From IMG/VR virus record IMGVR_UViG_3300040781_000267, positions 1 to 56,932 of that record: 56,932 bases of DNA; one strand, given 5' to 3'. Below the pieces are notes generated by a model. It saw nothing but the letters and a program-made list of their open reading frames with translations. It searched no databases and was not told where the DNA came from. The stretch is from a virus. Lineage: Duplodnaviria; Caudoviricetes. The stretch's first letter is position 1, and each line of letters begins with the position of its first letter. Below are positions 40,516 through 55,970 of this stretch, piece by piece. The position numbers were made by a program, and so were the translations under genes.

Positions 40516-40542
40516 GTTTGCCCCTAATTATAATACTATTTC

Positions 40543-43500
40543 TTAAGATAAGTTGAAACCAACTACCTTGTTAAGTCCGGTTGCACTATCAGTGAACCCG
40601 GTAGATATGTTACCACGGACATTATTATTTGTAACCATATAGCCGTCGCCAACACCAGCGTCTATCCATATACCGTGCGTCTGGGTGTTAGAAAATCCCG
40701 ACATAGGTCTAAATGTGCCGTTGCGGATAGAAAAGTCACTTATGTCCTTATGTATTGCTACTCCATTATTACTGTTACCGGAAGCCACAGAGGCATCGAT
40801 TGTAACATTAACTGGCAGTGTTACTCCAACAACACTATTAGCAACCGTATACCCGTCAACAGTGTTATTATACGAACGATGCCCTAGTATCTGTATACCA
40901 TCGATGGATCCTGTGCCGTATTGCTCAATAAAGATGCCGCTTCCGCCATTACTGGCTGTCCAGCAATCCGAGAAGTTGCACCCCTTAATTGCATTGTCAC
41001 CGCCGGCAATATAAATCCCGTGTCCGCTTACAGAAGAATCAAATGCACACTGATTAACAAAGCACCAGCTTATCTCGCCGAGGTCAGCTGTCATAAGCAT
41101 CCCGTGTCCGCTCTTGATAAAGTCACAGTCTGTCATCCAAACAGCGCCTGTTCCACGTATCCAGCACCCTGCATAAGGCTCTGTCCCGGTGTTGTCAGTT
41201 ACAACCCGTGTAACAAAAATATCATTACCGGCATCGATTCGTATGCAAGCGGAATTGGCTGCAACAAAAACTGTGTCGTTTATTTCAACATCAGTTATTG
41301 CTAGCACAACTGCATTAGTAATGTGTATTCCGTAAGTGTGCTTATCGATTCTAAGACGTTGGTACTGCCCATTTGAAGCAGCATCGGAATAAATGCCGGC
41401 GCCTGCTGTTTTAGTTACTGAAGAAGTTATAGACATACTATCTATAGAAATGTATCTAATATTATCACCAACATTAAAACTATGTGCTGTTGTACTAGTG
41501 TTCCTAATAACCGTAGCATCTACACCGGCTCCTAATAAGTGAATACCGAAATAATCTACGTCAAGTTCTGCGCCGATGTTATATGTGCCCGTCGGAAAGA
41601 ACACTGTGCCGCCCGTAGCGGATACAGAGTTAATTGCTGTCTGAATTGCTGCTCTGTCATCTGTGCTACCGTTGCCTGTTGCGCCAAAGTCTTTCACATT
41701 AACATAAATCCTGTCAACTGGCTGCAACGAAGTATCTGCCAAAGCACCCTGCGCCGCTGTTGCTATTGCTGCAAACGACAGTGTTCCGAGACCATCAGTA
41801 ACAAGTGCGTTATTAGCAGCACCGTCTGCAGATGGCCACGCAAGGTTCTGTAGAATTAAAGTTGCGCCGGCTGTTATACTTAGATTTTCGCCCGGGTCCG
41901 ATACAATTGCACCATTGCCGGAAAATCCGCAAACAACTGCTCCTAGTCCGTCTGGTACTAAATTAATATCTGCATCGGATCCGGCAGCCGTGACTATCGA
42001 AAATCCGTTTACGTCTAAATCTCCGCCGAGTTGCGGAGTAGTGTCGTCGACTACGTCTTGCAGATAAAATGCCGAGTAATCTCCTACTTCTGCAACAACA
42101 ACACCGGTACGACCAAACACAGAATCAACTGCGCCGCCTGCACTTATAGTAGTCCACGAAAGTGTTCCGGCGCCATCTGTTGTTAGTGCCTGGCCAACGG
42201 TACCATCTGCCAGCGGCCATTCTTGATTATTTAAAAATAATGATGTGTCGGATTGTACATATAATGCTTGGCCAACATCAGATTCGATTACGCCATCTGC
42301 TCCGGCGTTTCCGACAATCACTGTGCCAGCAGTGTCTGGAATAAGACTTATATCTGCACCAGATTCGATTGTTAGCGACTCGCCTGCTGCTGATGATATC
42401 ACGCCGGCTGCTCCTGGTGTGCCGATTGACAGGGCGCCAGTTCCGTCTGGTATTATAGTGACGTCGGCGTTGCTGCCAGGTGATGTGATCAATGCAAACC
42501 CATCTGTTGTTAAGTTGCCGCCTAGTGCAGGCGATGCGCCTGACACGCCGTCCCATCCAGATCCACCGCCGCCACCTGTTATCCAAGATAAGTTACCAGA
42601 TCCATCAGTAGACAAAACCTGACCTGCTGTGCCGTCGGTACTTGGCCATGTTTGTCCTAATAGAATTAGATCTACATCAGGATCAATATAAAGAGACTGT
42701 CCTACATCAGTGGACAATACGGCTGGGGCGCCGGTGTTACCAAAAATAACTTCACCGCCGTTGTCTGGAATAAGATTAATGTCGGCCCCGGAGCCAGGAG
42801 CAGTAATAATAGCAGAACCATTTACGTCTAAATTGCCGCCTAGTTGCGGAGTAGTGTCGTCGACTAAATCTTCTAAATAAAAGGCAGAATAGTCGCCTGC
42901 TTCCGCAACAACAACACCAGTACGACCAAACACAGAGGTAACATTGCCTGTTCCGCCGCTCGGGGTAGACCAATACAACACCCCGATACCGTTTGTAGTT
43001 AGTACCTGGCCAGCGGTTCCGAATACTTTCGGGTATACATTATTTTGTATTAGCAAATCCCCGTCTGCGTTAAGAAAAAGAGACTGTCCTACGTTTGCTT
43101 TAATTTTACCAGGAACCGGAGTTGAACCGATAATAACTGATCCATTTCCGTTTGGTATTATTTTAATATCTTGGTTGGCAGTAACACTTACGATGTTGTG
43201 ACCATTTACGTCTAAATTGCCGCCTAACTGTGGCGAAGGGTCGTCTACTACTGCGGTCAAATATGTCCCTCCGGCGCCCCACTGCAAATTGCCGGATCCA
43301 TCTGTAGTGAGTGCTTGGCCAGCGATGCCATCTACATTCGGCCATGTCAGTCCTTGTATCACAACATCGCCTAACGACTGAAGTGTTAATACCGTGTCTG
43401 CTTCAACTGTCAACGGCTGGGCAGTATCAGATGATAGAATGCCCGGTTGCCCTAGGCCTCCCATAATAACTTCACCTGTGCCGTCCGGTGCAATAACAAT

Positions 43501-43770
43501 ATCTTGGTTAGTACCGGTCGATGTAAAGATATCATATCCGTTTGTGTTTAGTGGTCCGCCTAAAACAGGTAGCGGGTCATCTTCAACTGCCTGTAATCCC
43601 GTCGGATTCGACTGTGTAAAAACAACACCGTCCTCGGTTACATTTACAGTTAGGTAATATCCGCCAGAACCGGCGTAAGATGAAGGGGTATCTGTTAGTT
43701 CGAGGAAAGTTTGTGCTCCGGCCAGCAGTGTCGGCCCTTGCAATTCTACCCCTGATAATATTAGACCCAT
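40543..43770 (-). CDS. Tailspike / fibre with pectin-lyase-like beta-helix
   Basis: VNVKDFGATGNGSTDDRAAIQTAIN...VFFPTGTY; repeated PQLGGNLDVNG and WP..DGT.GQ.LTTDG.G.L.W units; GATAAATAC at 43800-43808. Confidence 0.8.
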   Translation of the reverse strand: MGLILSGVELQGPTLLAGAQTFLELTDTPSSYAGSGGYYLTVNVTEDGVVFTQSNPTGLQAVEDDPLPVLGGPLNTNGYDIFTSTGTNQDIVIAPDGTGEVIMGGLGQPGILSSDTAQPLTVEADTVLTLQSLGDVVIQGLTWPNVDGIAGQALTTDGSGNLQWGAGGTYLTAVVDDPSPQLGGNLDVNGHNIVSVTANQDIKIIPNGNGSVIIGSTPVPGKIKANVGQSLFLNADGDLLIQNNVYPKVFGTAGQVLTTNGIGVLYWSTPSGGTGNVTSVFGRTGVVVAEAGDYSAFYLEDLVDDTTPQLGGNLDVNGSAIITAPGSGADINLIPDNGGEVIFGNTGAPAVLSTDVGQSLYIDPDVDLILLGQTWPSTDGTAGQVLSTDGSGNLSWITGGGGGSGWDGVSGASPALGGNLTTDGFALITSPGSNADVTIIPDGTGALSIGTPGAAGVISSAAGESLTIESGADISLIPDTAGTVIVGNAGADGVIESDVGQALYVQSDTSLFLNNQEWPLADGTVGQALTTDGAGTLSWTTISAGGAVDSVFGRTGVVVAEVGDYSAFYLQDVVDDTTPQLGGDLDVNGFSIVTAAGSDADINLVPDGLGAVVCGFSGNGAIVSDPGENLSITAGATLILQNLAWPSADGAANNALVTDGLGTLSFAAIATAAQGALADTSLQPVDRIYVNVKDFGATGNGSTDDRAAIQTAINSVSATGGTVFFPTGTYNIGAELDVDYFGIHLLGAGVDATVIRNTSTTAHSFNVGDNIRYISIDSMSITSSVTKTAGAGIYSDAASNGQYQRLRIDKHTYGIHITNAVVLAITDVEINDTVFVAANSACIRIDAGNDIFVTRVVTDNTGTEPYAGCWIRGTGAVWMTDCDFIKSGHGMLMTADLGEISWCFVNQCAFDSSVSGHGIYIAGGDNAIKGCNFSDCWTASNGGSGIFIEQYGTGSIDGIQILGHRSYNNTVDGYTVANSVVGVTLPVNVTIDASVASGNSNNGVAIHKDISDFSIRNGTFRPMSGFSNTQTHGIWIDAGVGDGYMVTNNNVRGNISTGFTDSATGLNKVVGFNLS

Positions 43771-43839
43771 ATTAATACTCCATAATAACTTAATTATGTG
43801 TATTTATCGTCTAAAGCTAGAATAGGAAATTTAGGAAGA

Positions 43840-43926
43840 TGGTGCCCTCCGAGGGAATCGAACCCATTGGCATCCTTCCCGAGTTTTAAGCCGGTGCCTT
43901 AGGAGGGCACTTCGGGGACGGAGGGC
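43840..43926 (-). tRNA. Atypical tRNA-Arg(CCU)-like RNA without a canonical D-arm
   Basis: Acceptor GCCCTCCG/CGGAGGGC-ACCA; GTGCC-CTCCTAA-GGCAC arm; GGG-TTCGATT-CCC T-arm; long variable region. Confidence 0.6.
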
Positions 43927-44055
43927 GTAAAGTGGGGGTCACCGCTTCCCCCACACTGGAGACTTTAAGATTTTCTAAGGTTTTCGCTAGACGTACATCA
44001 CTGAGCGGTGCTAGCACCGATGTCTCTTTACCTTAAACGTCGTACGGTGTTGTAT

Positions 44056-44703
44056 TTATAAAGTAACCGATGATATTTTCCGATACTTGCATTTGTAACA
44101 CTTACCACACGACTTAAATGCATCTTTTGCAGGGTATTTCGGTGTAATACAAGACACTACTTTCCTACGAATAGGTGTCGGTAATAATGTATATGCTTGC
44201 TTCATGGTCAAATCGGCATACGGAAATTCGAGCGACAGCGACGGAGAATGATCTGACAACTGAACAGACGACTCGAATATCTTGCTAGCTTTCTCTAACA
44301 AACGTCGATATGAGTCGTTTTCGTCGATATCTGTTTTTGTTGTTCCAAAAACTACCCTATCTATTCCGGGATTTCCGGCTGCAATATTTGCTGCCATAAA
44401 TGCAACTGCATCTAATTCTAAAACATTCCTCGAATATCTAGGCGGAATCATAAACTTAGTATCTACTGTACTCTCAGCAAAGAAAAACTTACGGTATTTT
44501 TTCTTGCCTTGAATATAATCAATTACAGATTTACATGCAATCGATTCAGCTAGTGCTTTATTTCTAGAATCTAGAAAATGTACATGATGTACTATAATAT
44601 CGTGATCTTTATACTTCGACTCTGTCAGTAAATCCACCAACAATGCAGTAGAGGATATGCCGCCAGACCACATTAGCAGTATTGCAGGGACTGTTTCGCT
44701 CAT
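44056..44703 (-). CDS. QueC-like PP-loop protein with degenerate motif
   Basis: LLMWSGGISST (the usual Asp is replaced by Ser); C-terminal SC..P.......CGKCYKC Zn motif. Confidence 0.7.
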   Translation of the reverse strand: MSETVPAILLMWSGGISSTALLVDLLTESKYKDHDIIVHHVHFLDSRNKALAESIACKSVIDYIQGKKKYRKFFFAESTVDTKFMIPPRYSRNVLELDAVAFMAANIAAGNPGIDRVVFGTTKTDIDENDSYRRLLEKASKIFESSVQLSDHSPSLSLEFPYADLTMKQAYTLLPTPIRRKVVSCITPKYPAKDAFKSCGKCYKCKYRKISSVTL

Positions 44704-44716
44704 TATTATCTCTTAG

Positions 44717-44804
44717 TGGCGGAAGGCGGAGGTCTCGATCCCCATGCCCGTTAAGGCACGAACTGTTTTCGAGGCAGTCTTAGCTCCTAGCTAATTCACC
44801 TTCC
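44717..44804 (-). tRNA. 8/4-type tRNA-Ser(CGA)
   Basis: 8-bp acceptor GGAAGGTG/CGCCTTCC, G73 and CCA; 6-bp D-stem; loop CTCGAAA; long V-arm; 4-bp T-stem with loop ATCGAGA. Confidence 0.85.
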
Positions 44805-44849
44805 ATTATAACAGTATTTATCACTGCGAGACAAGCTCGCAGTTTTATT

Positions 44850-46466
44850 TTACGGATTCAACGACGAAACCTTATGTGCAAAACTAAGAATTCCCGTCGA
44901 CCAACCACCTAGTATGTAAGTCTTATCGTAGATCTCAGGAACAATAGTATCGCTATATCCTGCCATCTGTACAAGATACACTTGTACATTCGGATTTACT
45001 TCCTTGCGGTATGCTGCAATTAGAGCAGGCACATCCACATAGCTGCGACCATAGCTACCTCGATCTTTCCATGTGAATTCTTTGGATGGCTTATATTGTT
45101 CTCTACAGAAAAGCTCGCCGTGACCGGCTTGCATGTCAGAGTACACAAATACATGATCAAAGTGTTCTTTATTTCTGATCGCCTTATCCCAGAATAGCCA
45201 GATGCCAGTTTCGGTGCCGCCGCCAACACTATCGCCTACTTTTTGCACCTTGTCCATTTGCTCGAAAATTCCTCGGTTAGGATCAATTTTCACCTCCTTT
45301 AGAGTATCGCCGAATGGATAAACAGCCGCTTCTCCTTCTGTAACCATACCCGTAAGAACCGCAGTTAGGTTTGCAATAGTGGACACTTGCGCTGAACCCT
45401 GGCTAGATGTAAATGTTCCGCGAGCAGAACCGCTATTGTCGCATAATGCAGCAACACGGCCATTGAATCGTGGCAGATTCTCAACGGACTCTTCCATGCA
45501 TCGCTCTACTGCCGCCTGAATTGCTAACGGCGCCGATGCATTTTGTAACTGCTGATATGCAGTATAGTAACGGAAAGGCAATTGCTTACCATTTGCTACA
45601 CCTTCAATCAGTTTGTCAGTAAATAGTGTGTGGCTAACACCGTTGTCGTTTAGATTACGGAGGTTACGTAACAAAGCCATGTGGCCCATCAAATCAACCG
45701 CCTTTGTCCATGTCTCTTTATTAGAACCCTGTTCGGAAATCAAAGACTCCCAGGTATTTTGCTCGTTCTTTAGCTTGTTATAAACAAGCTCGTCAATCGC
45801 ATCAGAGTGTGCATGAGCCATACGAACTACGTCAATTGTCTTAACTGTACGAGATTCCATGCGATACTTAGCAAGCTGATAAGAATTTAGACCTTCCAGT
45901 ACATCCTTCCACGCTTTCTTAAGAGCATTAGGGATTGTCTTGCCGTATTTGCTCATCTGGTATGCCATCTGTACGGCCGGTTCGTCGCCGCGCCGGATGA
46001 TATCACTTGCATACTTACGAATTAATCCTGTGCCTTTTGCATTCGGATGATTCGCTGCCCGCACCATAATAACCTGAGGTGTTGTGCGAATCATATCTTC
46101 GTTCCGCAAGGCTACTGCCAGTTGCAAAGTTGCCTCAACATCGTAGTTTAGGGCGGCGTCTATAGCCTCTTCCATCACATCGACTGTTGTTTTACCATTT
46201 GTCTCACGAGGTGTGACAATGCCTTTCAAAACATCAACAAGGTATTGCATTGCAGTCGGAGTGATCCCTGCATTAATCTTGCCTGCCTTAGATTTCATAC
46301 CTCCGTCTACATAATATGCCGGTTCGCCAAAGAAACAAGATGCCGCAATCATGCGAAGCTTGTTCAAAGGGTTAGTTACATCGAAAGATGCTCCGCCGTC
46401 GAAATTAGTGTGTGCTTCCAGTGTTACTTTTGGAGCCTTTGTCTTTGTAGTGTTTACAGTGGTCAT
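44850..46466 (-). CDS. rsr: Ro60/Rsr-like TROVE + vWA RNA-binding protein
   Basis: N-terminal N..GGASF, FFGEPAYY; ALRNEDMIR, YQLAKY, TWES, MALLRNLRNL and LPFRYYTAY; MIDAS motif CDNSGS, GGGT and SDMQ. Confidence 0.92.
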   Translation of the reverse strand: MTTVNTTKTKAPKVTLEAHTNFDGGASFDVTNPLNKLRMIAASCFFGEPAYYVDGGMKSKAGKINAGITPTAMQYLVDVLKGIVTPRETNGKTTVDVMEEAIDAALNYDVEATLQLAVALRNEDMIRTTPQVIMVRAANHPNAKGTGLIRKYASDIIRRGDEPAVQMAYQMSKYGKTIPNALKKAWKDVLEGLNSYQLAKYRMESRTVKTIDVVRMAHAHSDAIDELVYNKLKNEQNTWESLISEQGSNKETWTKAVDLMGHMALLRNLRNLNDNGVSHTLFTDKLIEGVANGKQLPFRYYTAYQQLQNASAPLAIQAAVERCMEESVENLPRFNGRVAALCDNSGSARGTFTSSQGSAQVSTIANLTAVLTGMVTEGEAAVYPFGDTLKEVKIDPNRGIFEQMDKVQKVGDSVGGGTETGIWLFWDKAIRNKEHFDHVFVYSDMQAGHGELFCREQYKPSKEFTWKDRGSYGRSYVDVPALIAAYRKEVNPNVQVYLVQMAGYSDTIVPEIYDKTYILGGWSTGILSFAHKVSSLNP

Positions 46467-46478
46467 TGTGTTTTCCTC

Positions 46479-46501
46479 TTGAAGAATTTATCTGCTATCA
46501 A
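46479..46501 (-). promoter_or_regulatory. Minimal copy of the Y-RNA module abutting the ro60 Shine-Dalgarno
   Basis: TTGA-TAGCA-GATA-AATTCT-TCAA immediately followed by GAGG. Confidence 0.5.
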
Positions 46502-46530
46502 TAAGTGTGTTTGGTACTGTTAAACTAGTG

Positions 46531-46550
46531 AAAGGTGCCAGGGGCACCTT
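46531..46550 (-). terminator. Terminator- or attenuator-like hairpin between the Y RNAs and ro60
   Basis: AAGGTGCC-CCT-GGCACCTT-T with a short T-tract. Confidence 0.5.
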
Positions 46551-46558
46551 GTTTAGAA

Positions 46559-46776
46559 AAAGGGAGAATACCGATTTCGGCATCAGACATAACGGAGTCT
46601 CGTTCTACCGTTGTGAAATTCCTCGTCCACAACCATCTACTAATTCACCGTAGACAATAGTTTGAATCTCGTCAAACACCAGTTACATTCGGCTGTAACA
46701 ACCTGTAGTAATAATAAGTCTTACCTTATCAGGGACTACGCTCAGTTAGAAGTATCCGAAAAACCTGCTACCCTTT
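46559..46776 (-). ncRNA. Y-RNA-like RNA with a large multi-hairpin domain (218 nt)
   Basis: AAAGGG-TAGCA...TTCGG-ATACTTC [about 170 nt] CCGAA...TATTCT-CCCTTT. Confidence 0.7.
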
Positions 46777-46783
46777 GGAAAAA

Positions 46784-46852
46784 ATTAGGAGAATAAACGT
46801 TTAGAGTTGTGGTTTCAGCAAATTGAAGTAACTCTCAACACCGCTTCCTAAT
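46784..46852 (-). ncRNA. Short Y-RNA-like RNA (69 nt)
   Basis: ATTAGG-AAGCG-GTGTTGAGAGTT-ACTTC...AACTCTAAACGT-TTATTCT-CCTAAT. Confidence 0.7.
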
Positions 46853-46878
46853 AGTAACTTTATTTATTTAACAGACAC

Positions 46879-46907
46879 ATTATAACGTCTGTTAAGTGCA
46901 AAGTCAA
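46879..46907 (-). promoter_or_regulatory. Sigma70-like promoter for two Y RNAs and ro60
   Basis: TTGACT-17 nt-TATAAT; an AATAAATA late-like box follows at about 46861-46868. Confidence 0.75.
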
Positions 46908-46925
46908 GCACTTTTTATAAAAAAG

Positions 46926-47014
46926 GAGCTGGGAAAGTGACAAGCCTTCCTACGTTTGTTCGAAACCCGTCGGGATGCAGCCCGGAGTAACTCGTCGCCG
47001 GCGCTACCCGGCTC
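46926..47014 (-). ncRNA. Y-RNA-like RNA (89 nt, divergent module)
   Basis: GAGCCGGG-TAGCG...GACGAGTT-ACTCC...GGCTTGTC-ACTTT-CCCAGCTC followed by a T-run. Confidence 0.6.
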
Positions 47015-47022
47015 AATTGTAG

Positions 47023-47346
47023 TCACAACTCCTTATTGTCTTCTTTAATGTACATGTACGGCTCGGCCCACGCTTGATACGTGTTGTGGTGTCCTTCGTA
47101 CAAGTCAAATTCAATCCGATAAGACCCGTTCGGTCCTCGGTCCGTATCCCACACTACTGCAAACCGATCTTCTATACTCGCTACACGGTCTTTGGAAAAA
47201 TTCTTTTCAAACTCTTCCAACAGTCGCTGGGCAGGAACTTTTACTTTGTATGTCTTTTCGTTTACTTTCGTGCAAACTCCGCGCATAAGAAACTGACAAT
47301 GCAAGACTACAACCTCAGTGTCAACTTCTATCTGATTTCGCATCAT
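47023..47346 (-). CDS. Hypothetical protein
   Basis: GAGG RBS, packed ORF. Confidence 0.65.
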   Translation of the reverse strand: MMRNQIEVDTEVVVLHCQFLMRGVCTKVNEKTYKVKVPAQRLLEEFEKNFSKDRVASIEDRFAVVWDTDRGPNGSYRIEFDLYEGHHNTYQAWAEPYMYIKEDNKEL

Positions 47347-47719
47347 GTTTCCTCTCGTTATACCAGTGTAAAAACATATCTAAAACGAATCGAAAATTGT
47401 TACCCTTTAACACGAACACCGTTTCGTCTTCTTTGCTACAAAATCCATAGGCCATCGAAAATTCTTCCTGGAACATATTATGGTCCATGCGGTGATATAT
47501 TTTATGATGAATTCCGTGTCGTCGTTCTAAATTGTATTCATACAAATAGCTGTTTAGTATGTGTGTTTGCATCGTAGGCGAGTCGGTGTTGTCTAATCCA
47601 TTAACTAAGTTAACCAACGGTGTAATCGCCCAACTGCGATCGAGTAAGACATTGTGGTTGCCGCAAACATATTCCGGTACTAATATATCCCGAGGGATAT
47701 ATTCTAGTGCGTGTGCCAT
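47321..47719 (-). CDS. Hypothetical protein
   Basis: Contains FCSKEDETVFVLK. Confidence 0.6.
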   Translation of the reverse strand: MAHALEYIPRDILVPEYVCGNHNVLLDRSWAITPLVNLVNGLDNTDSPTMQTHILNSYLYEYNLERRHGIHHKIYHRMDHNMFQEEFSMAYGFCSKEDETVFVLKGNNFRFVLDMFLHWYNERKHDAKSDRS

Positions 47720-47720
47720 G

Positions 47721-48035
47721 TCAACTCTTCGAGATCAACGCAACCATTTCTTCTTGTCGTATCTTTGCATCGAGAATTGCTTCCTTGACAACACGACGAT
47801 AATGTTTCAGTAGTCTCTGCTTGGCAGGGTCGGGAAGACGGTCAGTAATGTCATAGAGTCGATTGATGTTGCTGTAATTAGATGAGACAATCGAAACCCT
47901 AACACACTTTCGTTCGATCATCTCGTCGAGTAATTCAACTTCTTCAACAGCGCCCTTGATCCAACGACTCACCTCCGACAATTCTGTCGCAAGCTCGATT
48001 GTGTTGGACTTTTTTACTGTATTTGATTTCGCCAT
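47721..48035 (-). CDS. Hypothetical protein
   Basis: AAGGT RBS, helical sequence. Confidence 0.65.
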   Translation of the reverse strand: MAKSNTVKKSNTIELATELSEVSRWIKGAVEEVELLDEMIERKCVRVSIVSSNYSNINRLYDITDRLPDPAKQRLLKHYRRVVKEAILDAKIRQEEMVALISKS

Positions 48036-48055
48036 GGTGTTACCTTTGTTAAAGT

Positions 48056-48194
48056 GTTTAGAGAATATTAAGGACGGCGTGTTTTCTGGCGGGTGTGCTG
48101 TCCATTACACTATATCCAAATCTAATCTGGACAACAGGGATCGAACCTGTACCTCCTGCTTGGCTTGAAGTATCCGTATCTTCCGCTTCTAAAC
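48056..48194 (-). ncRNA. yrlA: YrlA-type tRNA-mimic Y RNA
   Basis: The shared module (GTTTAG-AAGCG...ACGG-ATACTTC / CCGT...TATTCT-CTAAAC) encloses, in order, T-arm ACAGG-TTCGATC-CCTGT, a loop-closed acceptor-like stem TGTCCAGA/TTTGGATA and D-arm TAGTGTAATGGACAGCAC. Confidence 0.85.
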
Positions 48195-48623
48195 GTAATT
48201 TACCTTTGTCGAACTATTAATCTCACGAATCAATCTCGTATGTTTCTGATCTTCTTCCTTTAGTGCTGCAAGCTCGTCGTATGTTTCCAATACTAAGCGT
48301 TCCATAAACTTAGCGTAGTGCCACAGTGGATTATGACTAACATATACTTCTACAAAGTCTCGTACTTTTACAGACAGCCCGTAATCACCTATCACAAATC
48401 CTAAGGGATCGTAATCATATCTCCTGCACCCTACAAATCGTAACACAGGGTGCTCTGTGTAGTCGGTCTCGTGGTTGTACGGGTCGTTAATAAAAATCAG
48501 CTGCCCTTCGTGTCGGACACCTTCTACTTCCGTGATGAGCTTCTGCTCGGTTAGACAGATATTGCTAAAGTACCGTTCTAACCGAGACTGAAGGTTACTA
48601 ACTTGTGTATCGTAGTCGATCAC
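48189..48623 (-). CDS. Hypothetical protein
   Basis: GTGA overlap with the upstream gene. Confidence 0.6.
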   Translation of the reverse strand: MIDYDTQVSNLQSRLERYFSNICLTEQKLITEVEGVRHEGQLIFINDPYNHETDYTEHPVLRFVGCRRYDYDPLGFVIGDYGLSVKVRDFVEVYVSHNPLWHYAKFMERLVLETYDELAALKEEDQKHTRLIREINSSTKVNYV

Positions 48624-49108
48624 TTGTTAAGAGATTCGATCTGCACAAGTGCCTTAGCGGAAATCTTCTCGTAAGTTGCCTTAAAGATTCCCTTAATCAT
48701 ATTCTGTACTGCATCAATAATGTCGCCGATAAGCGATTCCACCAGACTAAACGGCCAAGCAATAACCCATTGGGTAATTTTAGATAAGGCTTCCTGAGGA
48801 TCAATCATTTGTTTTCCGGACGAGGCCATTATTTTGCCGTTAGCCACTTCGCTGACGATATGAGCGCAATATTTCTTCCAGCGCCACAGTGACCACACGA
48901 GACCAATCGGAACCCAGACAACTGCTAATACGCCCATCATTGTCCAAGTTACAGACGGCAACGATACTGCTGCCAGCATCATAACTATCGTAAAAAATAC
49001 TGTCCAGCCGTGTGCTTCGTTGTGTTCTGTGACTAATGCGATAATACCCAGTAGGATAAATATCGGAACCCACCAGACTAGTAAAAATGCACCAATTGCA
49101 GCAAACAT
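48620..49108 (-). CDS. Hypothetical membrane protein
   Basis: Three to four hydrophobic segments; W..AWP.S motif. Confidence 0.7.
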   Translation of the reverse strand: MFAAIGAFLLVWWVPIFILLGIIALVTEHNEAHGWTVFFTIVMMLAAVSLPSVTWTMMGVLAVVWVPIGLVWSLWRWKKYCAHIVSEVANGKIMASSGKQMIDPQEALSKITQWVIAWPFSLVESLIGDIIDAVQNMIKGIFKATYEKISAKALVQIESLNK

Positions 49109-49141
49109 AATAATTTCCTTTGTGTTGTGTGTTGTTAATAG

Positions 49142-49227
49142 TGGTGCTCAGGACGGGACTCGAACCCGTATGCCTCGCGGCGGCGCTGTTTAAGAACGCT
49201 ATGTATACCAAATTCCATCACCTGAGC
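49142..49227 (-). tRNA. tRNA-Leu(UAA)
   Basis: GCTCAGG/CCTGAGC-ACCA; loop CTTAAAC; V-arm; TTCGAGT T-loop. Confidence 0.92.
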
Positions 49228-49228
49228 A

Positions 49229-49837
49229 TTATTTCAATAATCTCTTAGCGCGTTCGTAGTTGCCACCCTTAGCAGCAAGTCCTACACTAATTAACGCTTG
49301 TCGTATGTTAGCACACTCGTTCAGAGCTGTCAACAGTTCTTTGTCGGACACTTTCGTCTTACCTGTATTATTTCTACCCTTAAATGTATCAGTCTGGCTA
49401 TGACAATTTGGACAAAGGTATCTAAGGTTTAAAAGCCGATTATCTGTATTGTCGCCGTTTATGTGGTCGAGGTCTAGCACAATTGTCTCACCTTGCCACA
49501 TACCGTCTAGTCCACACTTCGAACACTCGTATGCGCCTAGCAAATTATCAGAAACAATACGCTGCTTTACCATTTCGTTAGAATGTCTGCTGTTTTTCAC
49601 AAACACCTCAGCATTCGTTGTTTTAATTTTCCCCCTAGACCAGGCCATCTTGTCCTTAGTAGTCTGTGGTAGGTCTGCATACACGTATGGCTTTCTTCCA
49701 TCCTGGTAACTAACAGTATTAATGGCACTGTTCTTTTCTTTCAATGCAGAACAGCTGGAGGAGTGTGCCGAACAACAGTGGGTGCCGTTTTTTAAAGTGA
49801 ACTTGGCATCAGAGCCGCAACCATATTTACATAACAT
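49229..49837 (-). CDS. Free-standing HNH endonuclease
   Basis: CSKCG...LDLDHINGDNTDNRLLNLRYLCPNCHSQTDT. Confidence 0.88.
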   Translation of the reverse strand: MLCKYGCGSDAKFTLKNGTHCCSAHSSSCSALKEKNSAINTVSYQDGRKPYVYADLPQTTKDKMAWSRGKIKTTNAEVFVKNSRHSNEMVKQRIVSDNLLGAYECSKCGLDGMWQGETIVLDLDHINGDNTDNRLLNLRYLCPNCHSQTDTFKGRNNTGKTKVSDKELLTALNECANIRQALISVGLAAKGGNYERAKRLLK

Positions 49838-49880
49838 AAATATATTTATCGGTATACATACTTTTTAACTTAAACTCTGG

Positions 49881-50120
49881 CTATACTAAATTTTGAACAA
49901 ATCCTACCAAGCCAGTATAGCCGCCAGGAAGATATTCTCCATCTACGAAGATCTGAGGAACTGTTTTAAGTGGGACTGGCATACGTGCCTGTAGAGATTC
50001 CTTTAGTGTTGGGTCTGTCTGAAGGTCAAGATAGGTGTACGATAACTGATTAGCATCGCACACCTTCTTTGCTTGAACGCAATACCCGCAACCGGGTCTG
50101 CCATAAATTTCGATGTTCAT
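49881..50120 (-). CDS. Glutaredoxin
   Basis: CGYC, TVPQIF and GGY. Confidence 0.92.
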   Translation of the reverse strand: MNIEIYGRPGCGYCVQAKKVCDANQLSYTYLDLQTDPTLKESLQARMPVPLKTVPQIFVDGEYLPGGYTGLVGFVQNLV

Positions 50121-50157
50121 TTGTATCCTCTATTATCTAGGGGTTACAAATTAACCC

Positions 50158-50760
50158 CTACTTTAGTTGTACTGCCTTTTTAAATGTTACACCCTTTGCC
50201 CAGTATTTCTCAAATGGGCCGCCGTCTTCGAAATCCCTAGGGGTAAACTCGTTCGACGGTAAATCGTTTGTCATTAACCCCATTCTTTGCAGAGACTCAG
50301 CTACTAATTCGGAACAAAACAAAGACGATACGTCTCGCTTGTTTGGGCGGAGCCAGCTAAAATCTAGTAACGACTTTGCTAGCTGCCAGTAATTCTTTTC
50401 GTACGGCTTACCCTTCGATTCACGACGGAATTCTGCTAGAATTCCAATCATTTTCTTTGTTACTCTGCCATCGTACTGTCTAACCCAAACCTCGCCCTTG
50501 TACTCGTCTAGTCGGTCAGATAGTGTAACTGTTTGGACTCCGATGCGTATTTCGCCAGTGTCCATATCTTTGACTTTACTCAACCCGGTCGACTCCCAAA
50601 TTAGTACCATATTTAAATCATTGCTTTTAACAATAATGCCAACATGAGACCACTTCGATCGACTAAAAAACTTTACAATTCCGCTAACAAATCCTTTTCC
50701 TGCAAATAACACAACATCGCCCGTGTTGAGTTCTTCACGAATATTCCTGTAGTTTTCCAT
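50158..50760 (-). CDS. Permuted papain-like NlpC/P60 (YiiX/YebB-like) enzyme
   Basis: GDVVLF, WSHVGI (His before Cys), GKPY, FCSELVA and PRDF. Confidence 0.8.
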   Translation of the reverse strand: MENYRNIREELNTGDVVLFAGKGFVSGIVKFFSRSKWSHVGIIVKSNDLNMVLIWESTGLSKVKDMDTGEIRIGVQTVTLSDRLDEYKGEVWVRQYDGRVTKKMIGILAEFRRESKGKPYEKNYWQLAKSLLDFSWLRPNKRDVSSLFCSELVAESLQRMGLMTNDLPSNEFTPRDFEDGGPFEKYWAKGVTFKKAVQLK

Positions 50761-50832
50761 TGTACCCTCCTGTATGCCTAACTAACAAACATATTTATCA
50801 GAGAAGGGTGGAATTTTATATAGTGTTATAAG

Positions 50833-50860
50833 AAAAAGGGCCACCGTTAGGCAGCCCTTT
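50833..50860 (-). terminator. Intrinsic terminator after tmRNA
   Basis: AAAGGGCTGCC-TAAC-GGTGGCCCTTTTT. Confidence 0.85.
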
Positions 50861-51130
50861 CTGATTATTCTGTTGCTAGGTGATCAACCCCGGATAACCT
50901 ACGCCGCTAGGGCAAGGTCTCCATAGAATGCATCATTTGCTGCATTTATTAAAGTTCTTCGCGTTTACGGCAGCTTAGATCGCCGATTCCTCGTTATTAC
51001 TTCTTAAGCTAGTCGATTCCATGAACCCTCCCATTAATAAGTACACTAGCATCAATGCACTTATTGGTGGAAGAGCCGGGATTCGAACCCGGGTCCTAGC
51101 CTTAATCCGTTTCAAACTCAGACGGAATTC
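50861..51130 (-). ncRNA. ssrA: Circularly permuted two-piece tmRNA
   Basis: Acceptor piece ends CCGGG-TTCGAAT-CCCGG-CTCTTCC-ACCA (51065). Hairpin spacer 51064-51033. Coding piece starts GGGAGGG-TTCATGGAATCGAC (51032) with G3:U70. Tag ORF 50943-50899 encodes AANDAFYGDLALAA*. Outer ends approximate. Confidence 0.92.
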
Positions 51131-51141
51131 TTTTTAGTAGT

Positions 51142-51306
51142 TATGCTCTCGCGGCATCACAGAAACTGTTGCAACAGTATGCATGTTATCTATTGTATTA
51201 CAATGGCTAATAGCAACCATAATTTTCGACGAACATACCGTCGAGAATAATTTATTGTCCTACGCCCTAGCGGTCAGTATGTGAACATGGGGCGATTGAG
51301 AGCATA
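51142..51306 (-). ncRNA. Candidate 165-nt structured ncRNA
   Basis: 9-bp terminal stem TATGCTCTC/GAGAGCATA; inner hairpins with complementary ACATAC/GTATGT loops. Confidence 0.55.
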
Positions 51307-51310
51307 TCGC

Positions 51311-51555
51311 TTAGAATACATCCAAGGTCTACTGGTACCAACATGTAACAGGCACAGCACCTACAATAGTGCATGTATGTCAACAGCGGTGATACCTGGC
51401 GTACCACTCCAGATCGTTGTGCAATTTCGTGCATTTCGGATTTAGGATGCATTGGAACGGTTTCTGTTGACAAGCACCGTTAGGCTCCGAAACAATCATA
51501 GCTTACGCTAGAGGACCACGACTCAATCTCATGGCGAAACGTGGACCTTCTCTAA
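51311..51555 (-). ncRNA. Candidate 245-nt structured ncRNA
   Basis: Terminal TTAGA/TCTAA and AAGGTCCAC/GTAGACCTT; inner TGTCAACAG/CTGTTGACA. Confidence 0.5.
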
Positions 51556-51579
51556 TTTTTATCACTTGAAACCCTTATT

Positions 51580-51733
51580 TGGTGGCGGATGAAGGACTCG
51601 AACCTTCAACAGCGTCATGCATGGTATTTCTGAACATAGCTAGTTCCGGACTTCACTACATTTTACTCTACCAGCGGCCTTGTTCGCGCCCCGATTTCCG
51701 CATCGGTTGCTTTACCAATTTGCATAATCCGCG
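51580..51733 (-). tRNA. 154-nt tRNA-like RNA with about 80-nt variable arm and irregular anticodon loop
   Basis: CGCGGAT/ATCCGCC-ACCA; D-arm TGC-AAATTGGTAAA-GCA; CCGAT-GCGGAA-ATCGG; T-arm GAAGG-TTCGAGT-CCTTC. Confidence 0.65.
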
Positions 51734-51739
51734 TCTATT

Positions 51740-51819
51740 TGGCACCCCGCGCAAGATTCGAACTCGCATGTTTCCAATTATCCTTTCTATCGGGTAGAAA
51801 CCGAAGGGAATACCGGGGC
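51740..51819 (-). tRNA. Atypical tRNA-Arg(UCU)-like RNA without a canonical D-arm
   Basis: GCCCCG/CGGGGT-GCCA; TCGG-TTTCTAC-CCGA arm; GCGAG-TTCGAAT-CTTGC T-arm; D-loop-like AATTGGAAA lies 3' of the anticodon arm. Confidence 0.6.
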
Positions 51820-51855
51820 TACATTCTTTTAATTAATAATTTTTTAGCACCACTG

Positions 51856-52080
51856 TTAATTAGAATTCTGTATGATACTCAGTAATTCCTGTGTGCTAAT
51901 AATCTCACACTTTTTTTGTATTTCTTCTATTCTTTTCTTAGGTATATCGTAGTGTTTGTACTTAGCACTACTATGATACCAACAGCGTTTTATTCCTAAA
52001 TTTTCTGCCATTTTGTGCAAATTTTTAACGCTATACGGTACGCAAATTAGGTGCCTAGCATTGTCGCAGTAGTATTTCAT
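51856..52080 (-). CDS. DUF4031-like small protein
   Basis: HL......LHKMAENLGIKRCWYH....HYDI; start set at ATG 52080 because the upstream part of the track ORF is tRNA. Confidence 0.7.
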   Translation of the reverse strand: MKYYCDNARHLICVPYSVKNLHKMAENLGIKRCWYHSSAKYKHYDIPKKRIEEIQKKCEIISTQELLSIIQNSN

Positions 52081-52083
52081 AAT

Positions 52084-52171
52084 TGGCGGAAGGCGGAGGT
52101 CTCGATCCCCATGCCCGTTAAGGCACGAACAACTTTCCAAGTTGTCTCAGTCCCCGACTGATTCACCTTCC
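52084..52171 (-). tRNA. 8/4-type tRNA-Ser(GGA)
   Basis: Same frame as 44717-44804; D-stem TCAGTC/GACTGA; loop TTGGAAA; 3' half identical to the CGA copy. Confidence 0.85.
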
Positions 52172-52512
52172 AATTTAGCAACCGTAAATGCATGTACTAT
52201 TGCATCTAGCGATTCTTCAAAAATCTTTTCGTTTTCTGTTGCTGGACGAATAACCTCTTCGTCGTCCCATCCGTGGCTGCCGCCGCGTACTTCCCAAGAA
52301 TGTTCCCACTCTCCGTTTTTGTTTATATAAATGCGTTCGTAATCATCGCTCAATCCGATTGCTGTTAGGAATTGTTTACGAACTCCGACACGCATTGTAT
52401 CGATGTCTATCAATCCAGATTCGACTAACATCTTAACGTCCTGCTCGGATACATACACTTCTACTTTCTTTTTTTTCACTTGTGTTGCATTTAGTTTAAT
52501 TTTCTTCATCAT
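52147..52512 (-). CDS. Hypothetical protein
   Basis: Coupled to the leuA stop; its 3' end overlaps the tRNA-Ser(GGA) 5' end by 25 nt. Confidence 0.6.
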
Positions 52513-54041: not shown

Positions 54042-54146
54042 AATTATATTGTCACGTCTGGCGCTCACTCTTATATGCCAGCTTTCTTACCATGTGTGCG
54101 CGTATTCATAGAGGCCTGGCTATAGCAACGAGCGTGACTTATTAAA

Positions 54147-54415
54147 TTTGTCCCCGGTGGTGTTCTCACAGAGCTCACAATTTAGCTACTCACGTATTTC
54201 CGAAACCTTTCACTAAAACGACAACCCATTACGTTGTCCGTACCGCCCGATCGCTATTGTCATCATACGGAAATACAAACTTCAATAACGTACAACAAAC
54301 GGTCATCCTACTCGCAACACACGACTCCGGTGTACCGGATATTCTCTCGGCCTGAACGTTGCTTTCGAAGGAGTTGTATCCACCTACGCCAGTGTAGTCA
54401 TTCAACGGGGACAAA
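54147..54415 (-). ncRNA. Candidate 269-nt structured ncRNA
   Basis: 10-bp terminal stem TTTGTCCCCG/CGGGGACAAA; inner GTATTTCCG/CGGAAATAC and GACAAC/GTTGTC; begins right after the tRNA-Gly CCA. Confidence 0.6.
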
Positions 54416-54417
54416 AT

Positions 54418-54491
54418 TGGAGCGGGATACGAGAATCGAACTCGTGTAATCAGCTTGGAAGGCTGGAGCATAACCACTTTGCTAATCCCGC
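54418..54491 (-). tRNA. tRNA-Gly(UCC)
   Basis: GCGGGAT/ATCCCGC-TCCA; loop CTTCCAA; TTCGATT T-loop. Confidence 0.95.
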
Positions 54492-54492
54492 T

Positions 54493-54621
54493 TTAATCTT
54501 TCTTAAACTTTTTCCTAAAATCTGCCAACGCCTTGTCGGCTTGCTTCTTTGCTATGGTGGTATCGTTGTTTTTCCACATAGCCATCATGTATGTCATAAT
54601 CCATAAATCTTCGTCATTCAT
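54493..54621 (-). CDS. Small hypothetical protein (42 aa, below the ORF track cutoff)
   Basis: MNDEDLWIMTYMMAMWKNNDTTIAKKQADKALADFRKKFKKD fills the gap and overlaps the upstream stop. Confidence 0.5.
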   Translation of the reverse strand: MNDEDLWIMTYMMAMWKNNDTTIAKKQADKALADFRKKFKKD

Positions 54622-54946: not shown

Positions 54947-54967
54947 ATTGTAATCCCTTAAACCCGT

Positions 54968-54996
54968 ATTATAACACAGCTATATTAAGATGTCAA
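54968..54996 (-). promoter_or_regulatory. Consensus sigma70 promoter
   Basis: TTGACA-17 nt-TATAAT. Confidence 0.85.
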
Positions 54997-55214: not shown

Positions 55215-55225
55215 GCATGTATTTA

Positions 55226-55831: not shown

Positions 55832-55970
55832 GAGTGTGTTCCACTTTAGTTTGTATGCTATTTATACGTACTTAATGATACCCTGTAATAGATGTGGGAG
55901 TGAGGTCTGGTCCCTCGTGGGCGGCCGTCATGTACAAAATACAGAGGAATTCGCCAACTCCCTATAAATT

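Follow-up and report, generated by a model that had tools for sequence, protein, structure and literature searches.

Two phage tRNA-Arg genes with a rearranged core, from two families that standard tRNA finders miss or mislabel

A 56,932-nt stretch of viral DNA (Duplodnaviria; Caudoviricetes; IMG/VR record IMGVR_UViG_3300040781_000267, here called the window) encodes two RNAs that resemble tRNA-Arg with the anticodons CCU and UCU, but in which the anticodon arm begins only 8–9 nt after the acceptor stem, without a D hairpin in between. The question was whether these are genuine tRNAs of an undescribed architecture or the remains of decayed genes. A first-pass annotation, made from the sequence alone, had proposed that a short pyrimidine-rich strand before the anticodon arm pairs with a segment 3' of it, that a GG-containing D-loop-like stretch follows, and that two divergent sequences of one odd topology suggest a real tRNA class rather than decay, perhaps nuclease-resistant or conformationally switchable. 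Our analysis confirms the observation itself, as both stretches are present with the described elements. The central inference of a real tRNA class is also supported, albeit with four corrections: the two RNAs belong to two distinct families and not to one, one of the scaffolds is not specific for arginine, a proposed pairing of the anticodon loop with a downstream segment is not conserved, and nuclease resistance and conformational switching remain untested guesses.

Two RNAs without a D hairpin

The first RNA, c1, is an 87-nt tRNA-Arg(CCU) on the minus strand (43926..43840), including the encoded CCA. The 5' strand of its 8-bp acceptor stem (nt 1–8, GCCCUCC(G), 43919..43926) pairs with nt 76–83 ((C)GGAGGGC, 43844–43851), followed by the discriminator A and CCA. 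Strand X (nt 11–15, CCCGA, 43912..43916) can pair with strand Y (nt 45–49, UCGGG, 43878–43882). Between them lies the anticodon arm (nt 17–33, 43894..43910), whose stem GUGCC/GGCAC encloses the loop CUCCUAA with the anticodon CCU at 43901–43903. A further helix H is formed by nt 35–37 (GGC, 43890..43892) and nt 56–58 (GCC, 43869–43871), and as it crosses X/Y, it makes a pseudoknot. Y is followed by AAGGAU, of which AAGGA (nt 50–54, 43873..43877) is present in 21/21 aligned family members, and we read these residues as equivalents of A14, R15, G18, G19 and A20, although this equivalence to canonical positions is inferred. The T-arm (nt 61–75, 43852..43866) consists of a U.U layer plus GGG/CCC with the loop UUCGAUU.

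The second RNA, c2, is a tRNA-Arg(UCU) on the minus strand (51819..51740, 80 nt), laid out as 76 nt plus CCA with 7/5 acceptor/T stems. Its acceptor has six pairs plus a G.G mismatch, followed by the discriminator G and CCA. Strand X (nt 11–13, UCC, 51807..51809) pairs with Y (nt 37–39, GGA, 51781–51783), and the anticodon arm (nt 15–31, 51789..51805), with four base pairs plus a U.U layer and the loop UUUCUAC, carries the anticodon UCU at 51796–51798. A linker AGAAA (nt 32–36, 51784..51788) connects the anticodon arm to Y, which is followed by the D-loop-like strand UAAUUGGAAACAU (nt 40–52, 51768..51780), with GGA at 51773–51775, and by a T-arm with the stem strands GCGAG and CUUGC around the loop UUCGAAU (51751..51767). 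The first-pass annotation had noted that UAGAAA in c2 is complementary to the loop UUUCUA. This complementarity exists, but the linker motif NGAAA, which is present in most of the 84 aligned family members, is kept unchanged in members with ACG, UCG, CCU, GAU and UAU anticodons, and the match in c2 is therefore coincidental. Longer linkers occur in phi92, Trina and Vibrio phage 424E50-1.

It had been anticipated that standard finders would miss or poorly score these RNAs, and for the programs and models applied here this was the case. ARAGORN finds neither RNA with default settings or with the options -ps, -ps80, -i and -mt, and the Rfam tRNA model (RF00005) gives no hit for either at E<=10. 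Across the families described below, ARAGORN detects 0 of 84 and 0 of 21 sequences, and the Rfam tRNA model gives no hit or 30–39 bits, compared with 45–68 bits for most neighbors in the arrays. By the definition that underlies these tools, c1 and c2 are thus not cloverleaf tRNAs, and the D hairpin between position 9 and the anticodon arm is absent. On the other hand, both possess the parts by which a functional tRNA is recognized, namely an acceptor stem, a discriminator and CCA, a T-arm with a GUUCRANYC-type loop, and a 7-nt anticodon loop with U33 and a purine at position 37.

Conservation, covariation and genomic context

The absence of homologs with compensatory changes had been named in advance, together with a lack of expression or charging, as what would refute the interpretation, and such homologs were found for both RNAs, more than would be expected by chance. 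A model built from c1 alone identified 36 full-length matches (E 3e-8 to 8.5e-15) in 47 IMG/VR loci, and after 20 of 48 sources had been passed to the alignment step, 21 distinct sequences remained, which all carry UCU or CCU anticodons. As c1 itself was the only seed, these outside matches represent the actual test of this family. The c1-type is defined by about 87 nt, 8/4 acceptor/T stems, a 5-bp X/Y helix, the 3-bp helix H and AAGGA, and c1 has every pair of X/Y and H and the G8-C pair. For the c2-type, at least 106 hits were obtained, of which 84 were distinct: 42 Arg, 41 Ile and 1 CAU. This sample was drawn with sequence patterns taken from c2 and does not cover all matches, and the anticodon census is therefore not unbiased, but half of the sampled members are tRNA-Ile, and hence the scaffold is not Arg-specific. 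The c2-type layout comprises 76 nt with a 7-bp acceptor, U8 A9 N, a 3-nt X, C, the anticodon arm, an NGAAA-type linker, a 3-nt Y, U-AA-..GG.. and the T-arm. c2 scores 93.7 bits with the corresponding model, of which it was one of the six seed sequences, and it aligns without gaps to five independent loci with relatives of exactly the same length. Using blastn, hits were found in 119 (c2-type query) and 345 (c1-type query) GenBank phage records, and most of the listed entries carry no tRNA annotation.

The covariation supports the structures. In the c2-type, 93.7% of the cells are paired in comparison to 60.0% in shuffles, and in the c1-type 98.5% in comparison to 75.1%, with 0/500 shuffles as high in either case. 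In the c2-type X/Y helix, the pair 11:52 uses all four Watson–Crick types (AU35 CG31 GC8 UA5 UG1), 12:51 is CG70 UA4 UG3 AU2 GC1, and 13:50 is CG76 GC6. Pairs 16–19 of the c2-type anticodon stem covary, whereas pair 15:31 is non-standard in 71/84, and the T-stem is 98.1% paired. In the c1-type, the acceptor helix is 99.4% paired, with changes on both sides in 7 of 8 pairs and an invariant G8-C (21/21). In X/Y, pair 14:52 is AU13 GC6 UA2 and 15:51 is CG15 AU6; all five anticodon stem pairs covary, and helix H is 98.3% paired, with 35:64 being AU8 GC8 CG2 and 38:63 being GC16 AU2 GU1 UA1. The fourth T-stem pair is G-C in 17/21 and non-standard in four members, as c1 and three others have a U.U layer at this position. 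This U.U layer of c1 and the G.G at acceptor pair 7 of c2 are minority states in their families. RNAalifold independently predicts the X/Y helix in both families.

Nucleotides typical of tRNAs are invariant. In the c2-type, U8, A9, U33, A37 and the A14-equivalent, which directly follows Y and a U, are each present in 84/84, and the c1-type anticodon loop is CUCCUAA or CUUCUAA in 21/21. Moreover, the base after the conserved GG tracks the amino acid identity perfectly, as it is A in 42/42 Arg members and U in 42/42 Ile/CAU members of the c2-type, and A in 21/21 members of the c1-type. The discriminator is A in 39/39 c2-type Ile members that have a letter there, and G23/A13/U6 in the Arg members. 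This matches the bacterial identity determinants A20, C35, U/G36 and A/G/U73 for Arg, and U20 and A73 for Ile (Giege and Eriani, 2023; PMC9976931). c1 (CCU, GGA, discriminator A) and c2 (UCU, GGA, discriminator G) both agree with the Arg set, although it is an inference to call the base after GG position 20.

The genes lie inside phage tRNA arrays, on the same strand as ordinary tRNAs and 1–7 nt from their neighbors, and they fill gaps in phage tRNA sets. phi92 has 15 canonical tRNAs without any Arg, plus one c2-type UCU, and the complete 101-kb phage G032 has four canonical tRNAs, also without Arg, plus one c2-type UCU. Mildred21 has canonical Arg(CCU) only, plus c2-type ACG, UCG and UCU, and the record behind L147 has canonical ACG and UCG, plus a c1-type UCU. 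In the 35 long ORFs of the window, AGA and AGG account for 27.0% and 10.9% of Arg codons, respectively. However, a 10-kb relative (L080; TROVE protein 74% identical), which is syntenic only with window positions 44850–50784, lacks both loci, and in one near-identical strain a contig joins 51748 to 51854, so that most of c2 is absent or replaced there. The genes are therefore dispensable or mobile.

A proposed permuted core and its alternatives

We consider it most likely, with a probability of roughly 0.78, that c1 and c2 are working phage tRNA-Arg genes that decode AGG and AGA and are built on two related non-cloverleaf scaffolds. In both, a 3–5-nt strand right after positions 8–9 runs straight into the anticodon stem and pairs with a strand after the anticodon arm, which is followed by a D-loop-like A-A-(N)-G-G-A stretch and then by the T-arm. 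Read against a normal tRNA, the block of D-stem 5' strand and D-loop has moved from before the block of D-stem 3' strand, position 26 and anticodon arm to after it, which is an internal circular permutation of the core. Each new junction (9 to 23, 45 to 10, and 21 to 46–48) joins residues that already touch in the canonical L-shape. In this view, the RNA would keep the parts that other factors read, namely a 12-layer acceptor/T arm for EF-Tu, a D-stem-like helix stacked on the anticodon stem, G18-G19-like contacts to the T-loop, and A20 for ArgRS, and the c1-type would additionally close the region with the pseudoknot helix and use the 8/4 split. The conservation, the covariation of every helix, the location in tRNA arrays and the identity-matched nucleotides are what our data demonstrate. 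The three-dimensional equivalence, in contrast, is inferred from tertiary contacts of canonical tRNA and not from a model or from probing, and processing, charging by host ArgRS and use on the ribosome are likewise inferred; there are no expression, end-mapping, aminoacylation or decoding data for any member. Literature searches found no description of such tRNAs.

Among the alternatives, it is unlikely, but least easily dismissed, that these are real tRNAs whose true fold is not a permuted L-shape. The anticodon helix may simply be extended with a bulge, as in D-armless mitochondrial tRNAs, with the GG stretch being a flexible connector. X/Y stacked on the anticodon stem is formally an extended anticodon helix with a 3'-side bulge, and no three-dimensional data exist. 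However, the invariant U8, A14-equivalent and GG, together with the identity-specific position-20 equivalent and the canonical T-loop, argue that the elbow and core contacts are kept, whereas mitochondrial D-armless tRNAs have lost these. Slightly less likely still are tRNA-like decoys or regulators that are processed like tRNAs but not used in translation, which might soak up a host tRNA-targeting nuclease or a modification enzyme, or serve the neighboring Ro60/TROVE RNA-surveillance system. The non-canonical core might be poorly accepted by the ribosome, c1 lies about 0.9 kb downstream of a TROVE (Ro60-like) gene, and phage tRNAs counter tRNA-cleaving defences (PMC10264068; PMC11464382; PMC11555353). 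Yet the anticodon, the A20/U20 equivalent and the discriminator all co-vary with amino acid identity, which a decoy for a single nuclease would not need, the genes complement rather than duplicate the canonical Arg anticodons in the same phages, and most family members are not next to a TROVE gene. Decaying pseudogenes that lost the D-arm through deletion and insertion can be practically excluded, because, although annotators have treated low-scoring tRNAs in these arrays as uncertain ('tRNA-OTHER', 'tRNA-Und') and c2 is missing from one close strain, the fixed length, the invariant core nucleotides, the compensatory changes in every helix and the presence across phages of Actinobacteria and Proteobacteria are incompatible with neutral decay.

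A more far-reaching and doubtful possibility is that phages of many bacterial phyla carry a natural, internally circularly permuted tRNA fold, which would be the first non-cloverleaf elongator tRNA class outside organelles. It would still form an L-shape and be charged by host ArgRS or IleRS, and it would persist because the missing D hairpin makes it invisible to host or phage factors that read the D-arm, such as tRNA-cleaving defence nucleases or the degradation of host tRNAs during infection.

Relation to canonical and other unusual tRNAs

With canonical bacterial and phage tRNA-Arg, such as the ordinary phage tRNA-Arg(UCU) genes L001–L003 found here, c1 and c2 share the acceptor stem, the discriminator, the 7-nt anticodon loop with U33 and A37, the T-arm GUUCGAAUC and an A at the position-20 equivalent, and c2 has the same anticodon arm and T-arm as L003. 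The difference lies in the missing D hairpin and in the equivalents of the D-stem 5' strand and D-loop, which follow the anticodon arm. D-armless mitochondrial tRNAs (PMC9427863) also lack a D hairpin. In animal mt-tRNA-Ser(AGY), for example, the anticodon arm is likewise close to the acceptor stem and AGN codons are decoded, but the mitochondrial forms have a short connector, degenerate T- and D-loop contacts and dedicated synthetases. The phage forms keep a canonical T-loop, GG, U8 and an A14-equivalent, have a long 3' connector that rebuilds a D-stem-like helix, and occur in phages of bacteria and not in organelles.

The tRNA-like domains of tmRNA and bacterial Y RNA (YrlA) are tRNA mimics with an acceptor and T-arm and a reduced or rearranged D region, and a permuted tmRNA and the TROVE gene lie in the same window. 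Those RNAs have no anticodon loop, however, whereas c1 and c2 carry complete anticodon arms with Arg anticodons. Neither matches the Rfam tmRNA or YrlA (RF02553) models, with no YrlA hit in 43000–56932 at E<=10, and their ends form an acceptor stem with CCA.

The c1-type shares its 8-bp acceptor and 4-bp T-stem, and its occurrence in phage tRNA clusters, with the (8/4) tRNAs, i.e., allo-tRNA and the 8/4 tRNA-Ser and tRNA-His of bacteria and their phages (Mukai et al.; PMC5389517). In the passages of that work that we examined, which did not include its supplements, the 8/4 species are Ser, His, Cys and Sec, AGA/AGG anticodons are assigned to the 9/3 allo-tRNAs, and a D-armless form is not mentioned. 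The c1-type is UCU/CCU only and has a pseudoknotted core without a D hairpin, and although c1 has the 8/4 split, it does not qualify as an allo-tRNA or tRNA-Sec-like RNA, which combine 8/4 or 8/5 stems with a D-arm and a long variable arm; its score with the Rfam tRNA-Sec model is only 19.8 bits, below the gathering score of 47. Helix H of the c1-type sits where the long variable arm of class II tRNAs would be, between the anticodon arm and the T-arm, but its 'loop', which is 18 nt in c1, carries the strand that pairs with X and the GG motif, and helix H thus replaces the D-arm rather than adding an arm.

Two tRNA-like RNAs without a D hairpin

The 56,932-bp window is a complete virus record and a fragment of a jumbo myovirus, with a tail sheath 47% identical to those of PA5oct-like phages and 44% to that of Atu_ph07, and with an rIIA gene. 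In 40000-56932, all ORFs of 130 aa or more lie on the minus strand, and the two candidates also read on this strand, c1 at 43926..43840 (87 nt) and c2 at 51819..51740 (80 nt). Each has a 5'/3' acceptor stem, a discriminator, an encoded CCA, a canonical T-loop, and a stem with a 7-nt loop, which is CUCCUAA in c1 (anticodon CCU) and UUUCUAC in c2 (anticodon UCU). The anticodon stem starts only 8-9 nt after the acceptor stem, so there is no room for a D hairpin. The ordinary RNA genes nearby also encode CCA, namely tRNA-Leu(UAA) at 49142-49227, a permuted (two-piece) tmRNA at 50808-51157 (minus strand) and tRNA-Gly(UCC) at 54418-54491. The tmRNA has the tag peptide AANDAFYGDLALAA and scores 72.6 bits against Rfam tmRNA_permuted.

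The first-pass annotation had anticipated that standard tRNA finders would miss the two RNAs or score them low, and ARAGORN indeed found neither in any mode tried; its -mt setting gave an unrelated 62-nt 'TV-loop' call inside the c2 region, which we disregarded. The Rfam tRNA model gave no hit at E<=10, and c1 reached only 19.8 bits against tRNA-Sec. The description given in the first-pass annotation is therefore accurate. Thermodynamics alone does not single out c2, as single-sequence folding gave z = 0.15, and a promoter and terminator scan of 43600-52200 found 19 promoter-like sites against 18.4 expected, with only a 9/12 site upstream of c2, which is not informative. The idea that c1 could be a Y RNA was rejected, as there was no match to the Rfam YrlA model. 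A shorter form of c1 was also considered, as c1 contains GCCCUCC twice (nt 1-7 and 19-25) and nt 17-25 are an exact complement of its own 3' end (nt 77-85). However, the form starting at nt 19 scores only like an ordinary tRNA against two models, R2 and R3 (16.2 and 24.6 bits), and the repeat with its 9-nt complementarity is absent from the homolog L147 (see below), so we regard it as probably due to chance, although it allows an alternative pairing in this one gene.

Two conserved families in phage tRNA arrays

Close relatives of the phage and direct sequence searches did not help. Megablast of 43000-52500 against GenBank phage DNA found nothing, and blastn of c1 and c2 themselves gave only T-arm-sized hits. 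Among 75 loci with related tail sheaths in IMG/VR, the closest, L004, shares no DNA with 43000-56932, and a model built from c1 alone (R1) found nothing in the 28 larger records of the 75. The TROVE protein of the window had no relative in IMG/VR, and a 10-kb metagenome contig (L080) with a TROVE protein 74% identical to the window's is syntenic only with 44850-50784, lacks both loci, and has no counterpart at the position of the tmRNA. A MAFFT alignment of c1 with c2 was misaligned and was not used. An exact-pattern scan showed that ordinary phage tRNA-Arg(UCU) genes (L001-L003) share the anticodon arm and T-arm of c2 but have a normal D-arm, and c2 therefore descends from the tRNA-Arg lineage.

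The first real lead came from contigs of four public sequencing runs. One soil contig covers 51508-51817, which is nearly all of c2, with 2 differences in 310 nt. Two other contigs match only the 3' half of c2 (51739/51740-51787), and their non-matching continuations, read on the RNA strand, show the same short 5' strand followed by anticodon hairpins with other Arg anticodons. The contigs do not cover the c1 region at all and thus say nothing about c1. Near-identical strains differ at the c2 locus (runs X3 and X5): one contig joins 51748 to 51854, so that this strain lacks most of c2, and another ends at 51748 with a differing continuation. The locus therefore looks like a hot spot for gain and loss.

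A pattern built from the D-loop-like motif and the T-loop of c2 found the first members of the c2-type family in IMG/VR, all exactly 76 nt before the CCA position. A covariance model of six of them (R3), a kind of search the first-pass annotation had named as a test, found more copies in the same contigs and in the GenBank phages Streptomyces phage Mildred21 (four copies), Microbacterium phage A3Wally, Escherichia phage phi92 (FR775895.2 51874-51955), Vibrio phage 424E50-1 and Rhodococcus phage Trina. In contrast, psageK4 'tRNA-Pseudo-ACG' and Vibrio phage 1.250.O 'tRNA-OTHER' are cloverleaf-like and are not family members (31.5 and 27.6 bits). A looser pattern that does not fix the base after GG gave, with R3, at least 106 matches, 84 of them distinct. 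The layout is a 7-bp acceptor, U8, A9, one nucleotide, a 3-nt strand X, C, the anticodon arm (4 bp plus a mostly U.U layer), a linker that is usually NGAAA, a 3-nt strand Y, U, a stretch AA..GG.., and then the T-arm. Covariation is strong, as 93.7% of cells are paired, against 60.0% in shuffles (0/500 shuffles as high) and 38-50% when the partners are slid. In X/Y, pair 11:52 is AU35 CG31 GC8 UA5 UG1 with 4 unpaired, pair 12:51 is CG70 UA4 UG3 AU2 GC1, and pair 13:50 is CG76 GC6. The alignments were fitted to the model, which favours the structure, and no R-scape-type significance testing on trees was performed, but most rows are ungapped, so that alignment freedom is small, and RNAalifold predicts the same X/Y helix without being given it. 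An alternative pairing in c2, UUCC (nt 10-13) with GGAA (nt 45-48), was rejected because it is not kept in relatives, where the 11-13/37-39 pairing covaries. A switch in which UAGAAA pairs with the anticodon loop, a complementarity that the first-pass annotation had pointed out in c2, is not conserved.

For the c1-type family, a pattern from the 3' core of c1 found one homolog, L147, in which two X/Y pairs are changed on both sides. A shorter pattern gave 47 loci, in which R1 matches 36 sites over the full 87 positions, and 21 distinct sequences, taken from 20 of the 48 available sources, were aligned. All 21 have an invariant G8-C pair that makes an 8-bp acceptor, and they have a 4-layer T-stem, a 5-bp X/Y helix and AAGGA after Y. 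Inspection of the rows showed a further 3-bp helix, H, which joins the start of the 'bulge' after the anticodon arm (c1 nt 35-37) with the three bases after GGA(U) (nt 56-58) and crosses X/Y, so that it forms a pseudoknot. Counted together with the other helices, 98.5% of cells are paired against 75.1% in shuffles (0/500), although this count is not blind, as the H columns were chosen after looking at the alignment. X/Y pair 14:52 is AU13 GC6 UA2 and 15:51 is CG15 AU6, and H pair 35:64 is AU8 GC8 CG2 and 38:63 is GC16 AU2 GU1 UA1.

Evidence for use as tRNAs and the inferred fold

Several independent lines suggest that these are tRNAs in use. Members sit inside phage tRNA arrays on the same strand, a few nucleotides from neighbouring tRNAs. 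In the c2-type, U8, A9, U33, A37 and the A that follows Y+U are each present in 84/84. Anticodons are restricted: the c2-type has Arg in 42 (ACG 23, UCU 11, UCG 5, CCU 3), Ile in 41 (GAU 26, UAU 15) and CAU in 1, and the c1-type has only UCU (18) and CCU (3), a census that is not unbiased, as the two models were not run over all of IMG/VR and GenBank without sequence pre-filters. The base after the conserved GG is A in 42/42 Arg members and U in 42/42 Ile/CAU members of the c2-type, and the discriminator is A in 39/39 Ile members that have a letter there and G23/A13/U6 in Arg members. The bacterial identity sets are A20, C35, U/G36 and A/G/U73 for Arg, and U20, U21 and A73 for Ile (Giege and Eriani, 2023; PMC9976931), and the GG-N therefore behaves as G18-G19-N20.

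The genes also complement the canonical tRNA sets. Phage phi92 has 15 ARAGORN tRNAs and none for Arg, and its c2-type UCU lies in the gap between Leu and Ser. The complete 101-kb phage G032 has only Leu(UAA), Pro, Tyr and Ile(UAU), plus a c2-type UCU, Mildred21 has canonical Arg(CCU) only, plus c2-type ACG, UCG and UCU, and the array of L147 has canonical ACG and UCG, plus c1-type UCU. In the window itself, AGA and AGG make up 27.0% and 10.9% of Arg codons in 35 long ORFs.

How these RNAs fold in space is an inference. X is continuous with the 5' strand of the anticodon stem, and in a stacked helix it would therefore take the place of D-stem strand 22-25, with Y in the place of 10-13. Three observations fit this reading: Y begins with G, which pairs with C next to the anticodon stem, like the canonical G10-C25 pair; Y is followed by A-A..G-G-N20, like A14, R15, G18, G19 and N20; and the U just before the T-stem can stand for Y48. 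In this view, the internal segment 10-45 is circularly permuted, and the chain goes from 9 to 23-25, then 26, the anticodon arm and a linker, then 10-13, then 14-21, then 46-48 and 49. The three new junctions would join residues that are neighbours in canonical tRNA through the 9-12-23, 45-10-25 and 8-14-21/46-13-22 layers of the yeast tRNA-Phe structure, and an L-shape could therefore be kept. In the c1-type, the moved block would sit inside the loop of a variable-arm-like helix (H), with an 8/4 acceptor/T split. Neither arrangement has been modelled in 3-D or probed, and we consider the permuted L-shape plausible, with less confidence than the use as tRNAs.

The main inference of the first-pass annotation, a real tRNA class and not decay, is thus supported and widened. 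Our sequence comparisons show that c1 and c2 are intact members of two conserved phage tRNA families with a rearranged core. That they are expressed, arginylated and used for AGG and AGA goes beyond these comparisons and is untested, but it is the best-supported reading, with a probability of about 0.78. No RNA data were found among the sequencing runs. Any benefit, such as the evasion of tRNA-targeting nucleases, is speculation.

The cloverleaf with a D hairpin is treated as universal for cytosolic and bacterial elongator tRNAs, and exceptions are known mainly from mitochondria. If the RNAs described here are working tRNAs, phage tRNA repertoires, and every codon-usage or defence-evasion analysis built on them, are systematically missing Arg and Ile decoders. 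It would also follow that the tRNA core tolerates a strand permutation in nature, which informs how ArgRS, IleRS, EF-Tu, RNase P and the ribosome read tRNA shape. Furthermore, phi92 in E. coli would give a directly testable system, and the scaffold could serve as a starting point for orthogonal tRNAs.

Distribution, annotation and neighbouring features

The two scaffolds appear across cultured phages whose hosts include Streptomyces, Microbacterium, Rhodococcus, Escherichia (phi92), Vibrio, Acinetobacter, Aeromonas and Salmonella. Blastn with one c2-type member hits 119 GenBank phage records (Streptomyces 49, Escherichia 31, Mycobacterium 10, Pseudomonas 8, Vibrio 6 and others), although some weaker hits are T-arm-only matches to ordinary tRNAs. 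Blastn with one c1-type member hits 345 records, 333 of them over at least 80% of the query (Vibrio 307, Acinetobacter 32, Aeromonas 3, Escherichia 2 and Salmonella 1), and none of the 40 rows inspected is annotated as a tRNA. A pattern scan of one genome for each of 185,579 prokaryote species gave four matching stretches, three of them true members, all on MAG contigs; two of these carry 16-20-tRNA arrays, and the third has one canonical tRNA-Arg(UCU) in the locus. The families therefore look phage-borne.

Rfam 15 has no family for these RNAs. Its tRNA model scores four of seven c2-type copies in six test loci at 30.2-38.6 bits, just over the 29-bit threshold, while most canonical neighbours score 45-68, and it scores none of two c1-type copies. 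This fits the scattered 'tRNA-OTHER' labels, and ARAGORN finds 0/84 c2-type and 0/21 c1-type sequences. Full-text literature searches, to which closed-access papers and supplementary files were not visible, found no description of such tRNAs, and neither did Mukai et al. on 8/4 tRNAs (PMC5389517) nor a 2020 review of non-canonical tRNAs (PMC7609411). In the blastn rows inspected, nearly all hits are unannotated, called 'tRNA-OTHER', overlaid by a CDS, or in one case called tRNA-Phe. The latter is Mildred21 gene 169 (L115 505-580; MF155946.1 91367-91442), annotated tRNA-Phe(gaa), which is a c2-type RNA (81 bits against R3) whose 7-nt loop CUUCGAA reads as anticodon UCG, i.e. Arg. The overlaid cases include several Vibrio phage records, such as L118 975-1094 (OX241437.1), in which the c1-type or c2-type gene lies under a short 'hypothetical protein' CDS that is probably spurious.

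Two of the loci hold other RNAs. In locus L082, a GOLLD RNA (6036-6505, minus strand; 159.5 bits) lies inside the tRNA array that also holds two c2-type tRNAs. In locus L087, another tRNA-like gene (2850-2922, minus strand) lies directly upstream of the c2-type pair, scores only 36.7 bits against Rfam tRNA and is missed by ARAGORN, and it may be a further odd scaffold.

In the window, 44850-46466 and 46500-46907 (both minus strand) comprise a TROVE/Ro60-like gene, 40% identical to Bacillus phage G gp540, that is preceded by a near-consensus sigma-70 promoter (TTGACT-17-TATAAT, 46907-46879) and about 340 nt of non-coding sequence ending in a hairpin. Part of this region is conserved in L080, and it may hold a Y-RNA-like partner, but there is no Rfam YrlA hit. 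The intergenic stretch 48036-48188 (minus strand) has a good T-arm-like hairpin (ACAGG-UUCGAUC-CCUGU) directly followed by a 6-bp hairpin; no acceptor partner or CCA was found, folding is not better than shuffles (z = -0.29), the stretch varies between strains, and its nature is unexplained. At 52509-54068, 44056-44703, 55226-55831 and 49229-49837 (all minus strand) lie unusual cargo genes for a phage, which include a full-length LeuA/homocitrate-synthase-like gene (HMGL-like + HCS_D2 + LeuA_dimer), a weak QueC-like gene, and an outer-membrane beta-barrel/PagL-like gene, and an HNH endonuclease sits next to tRNA-Leu.
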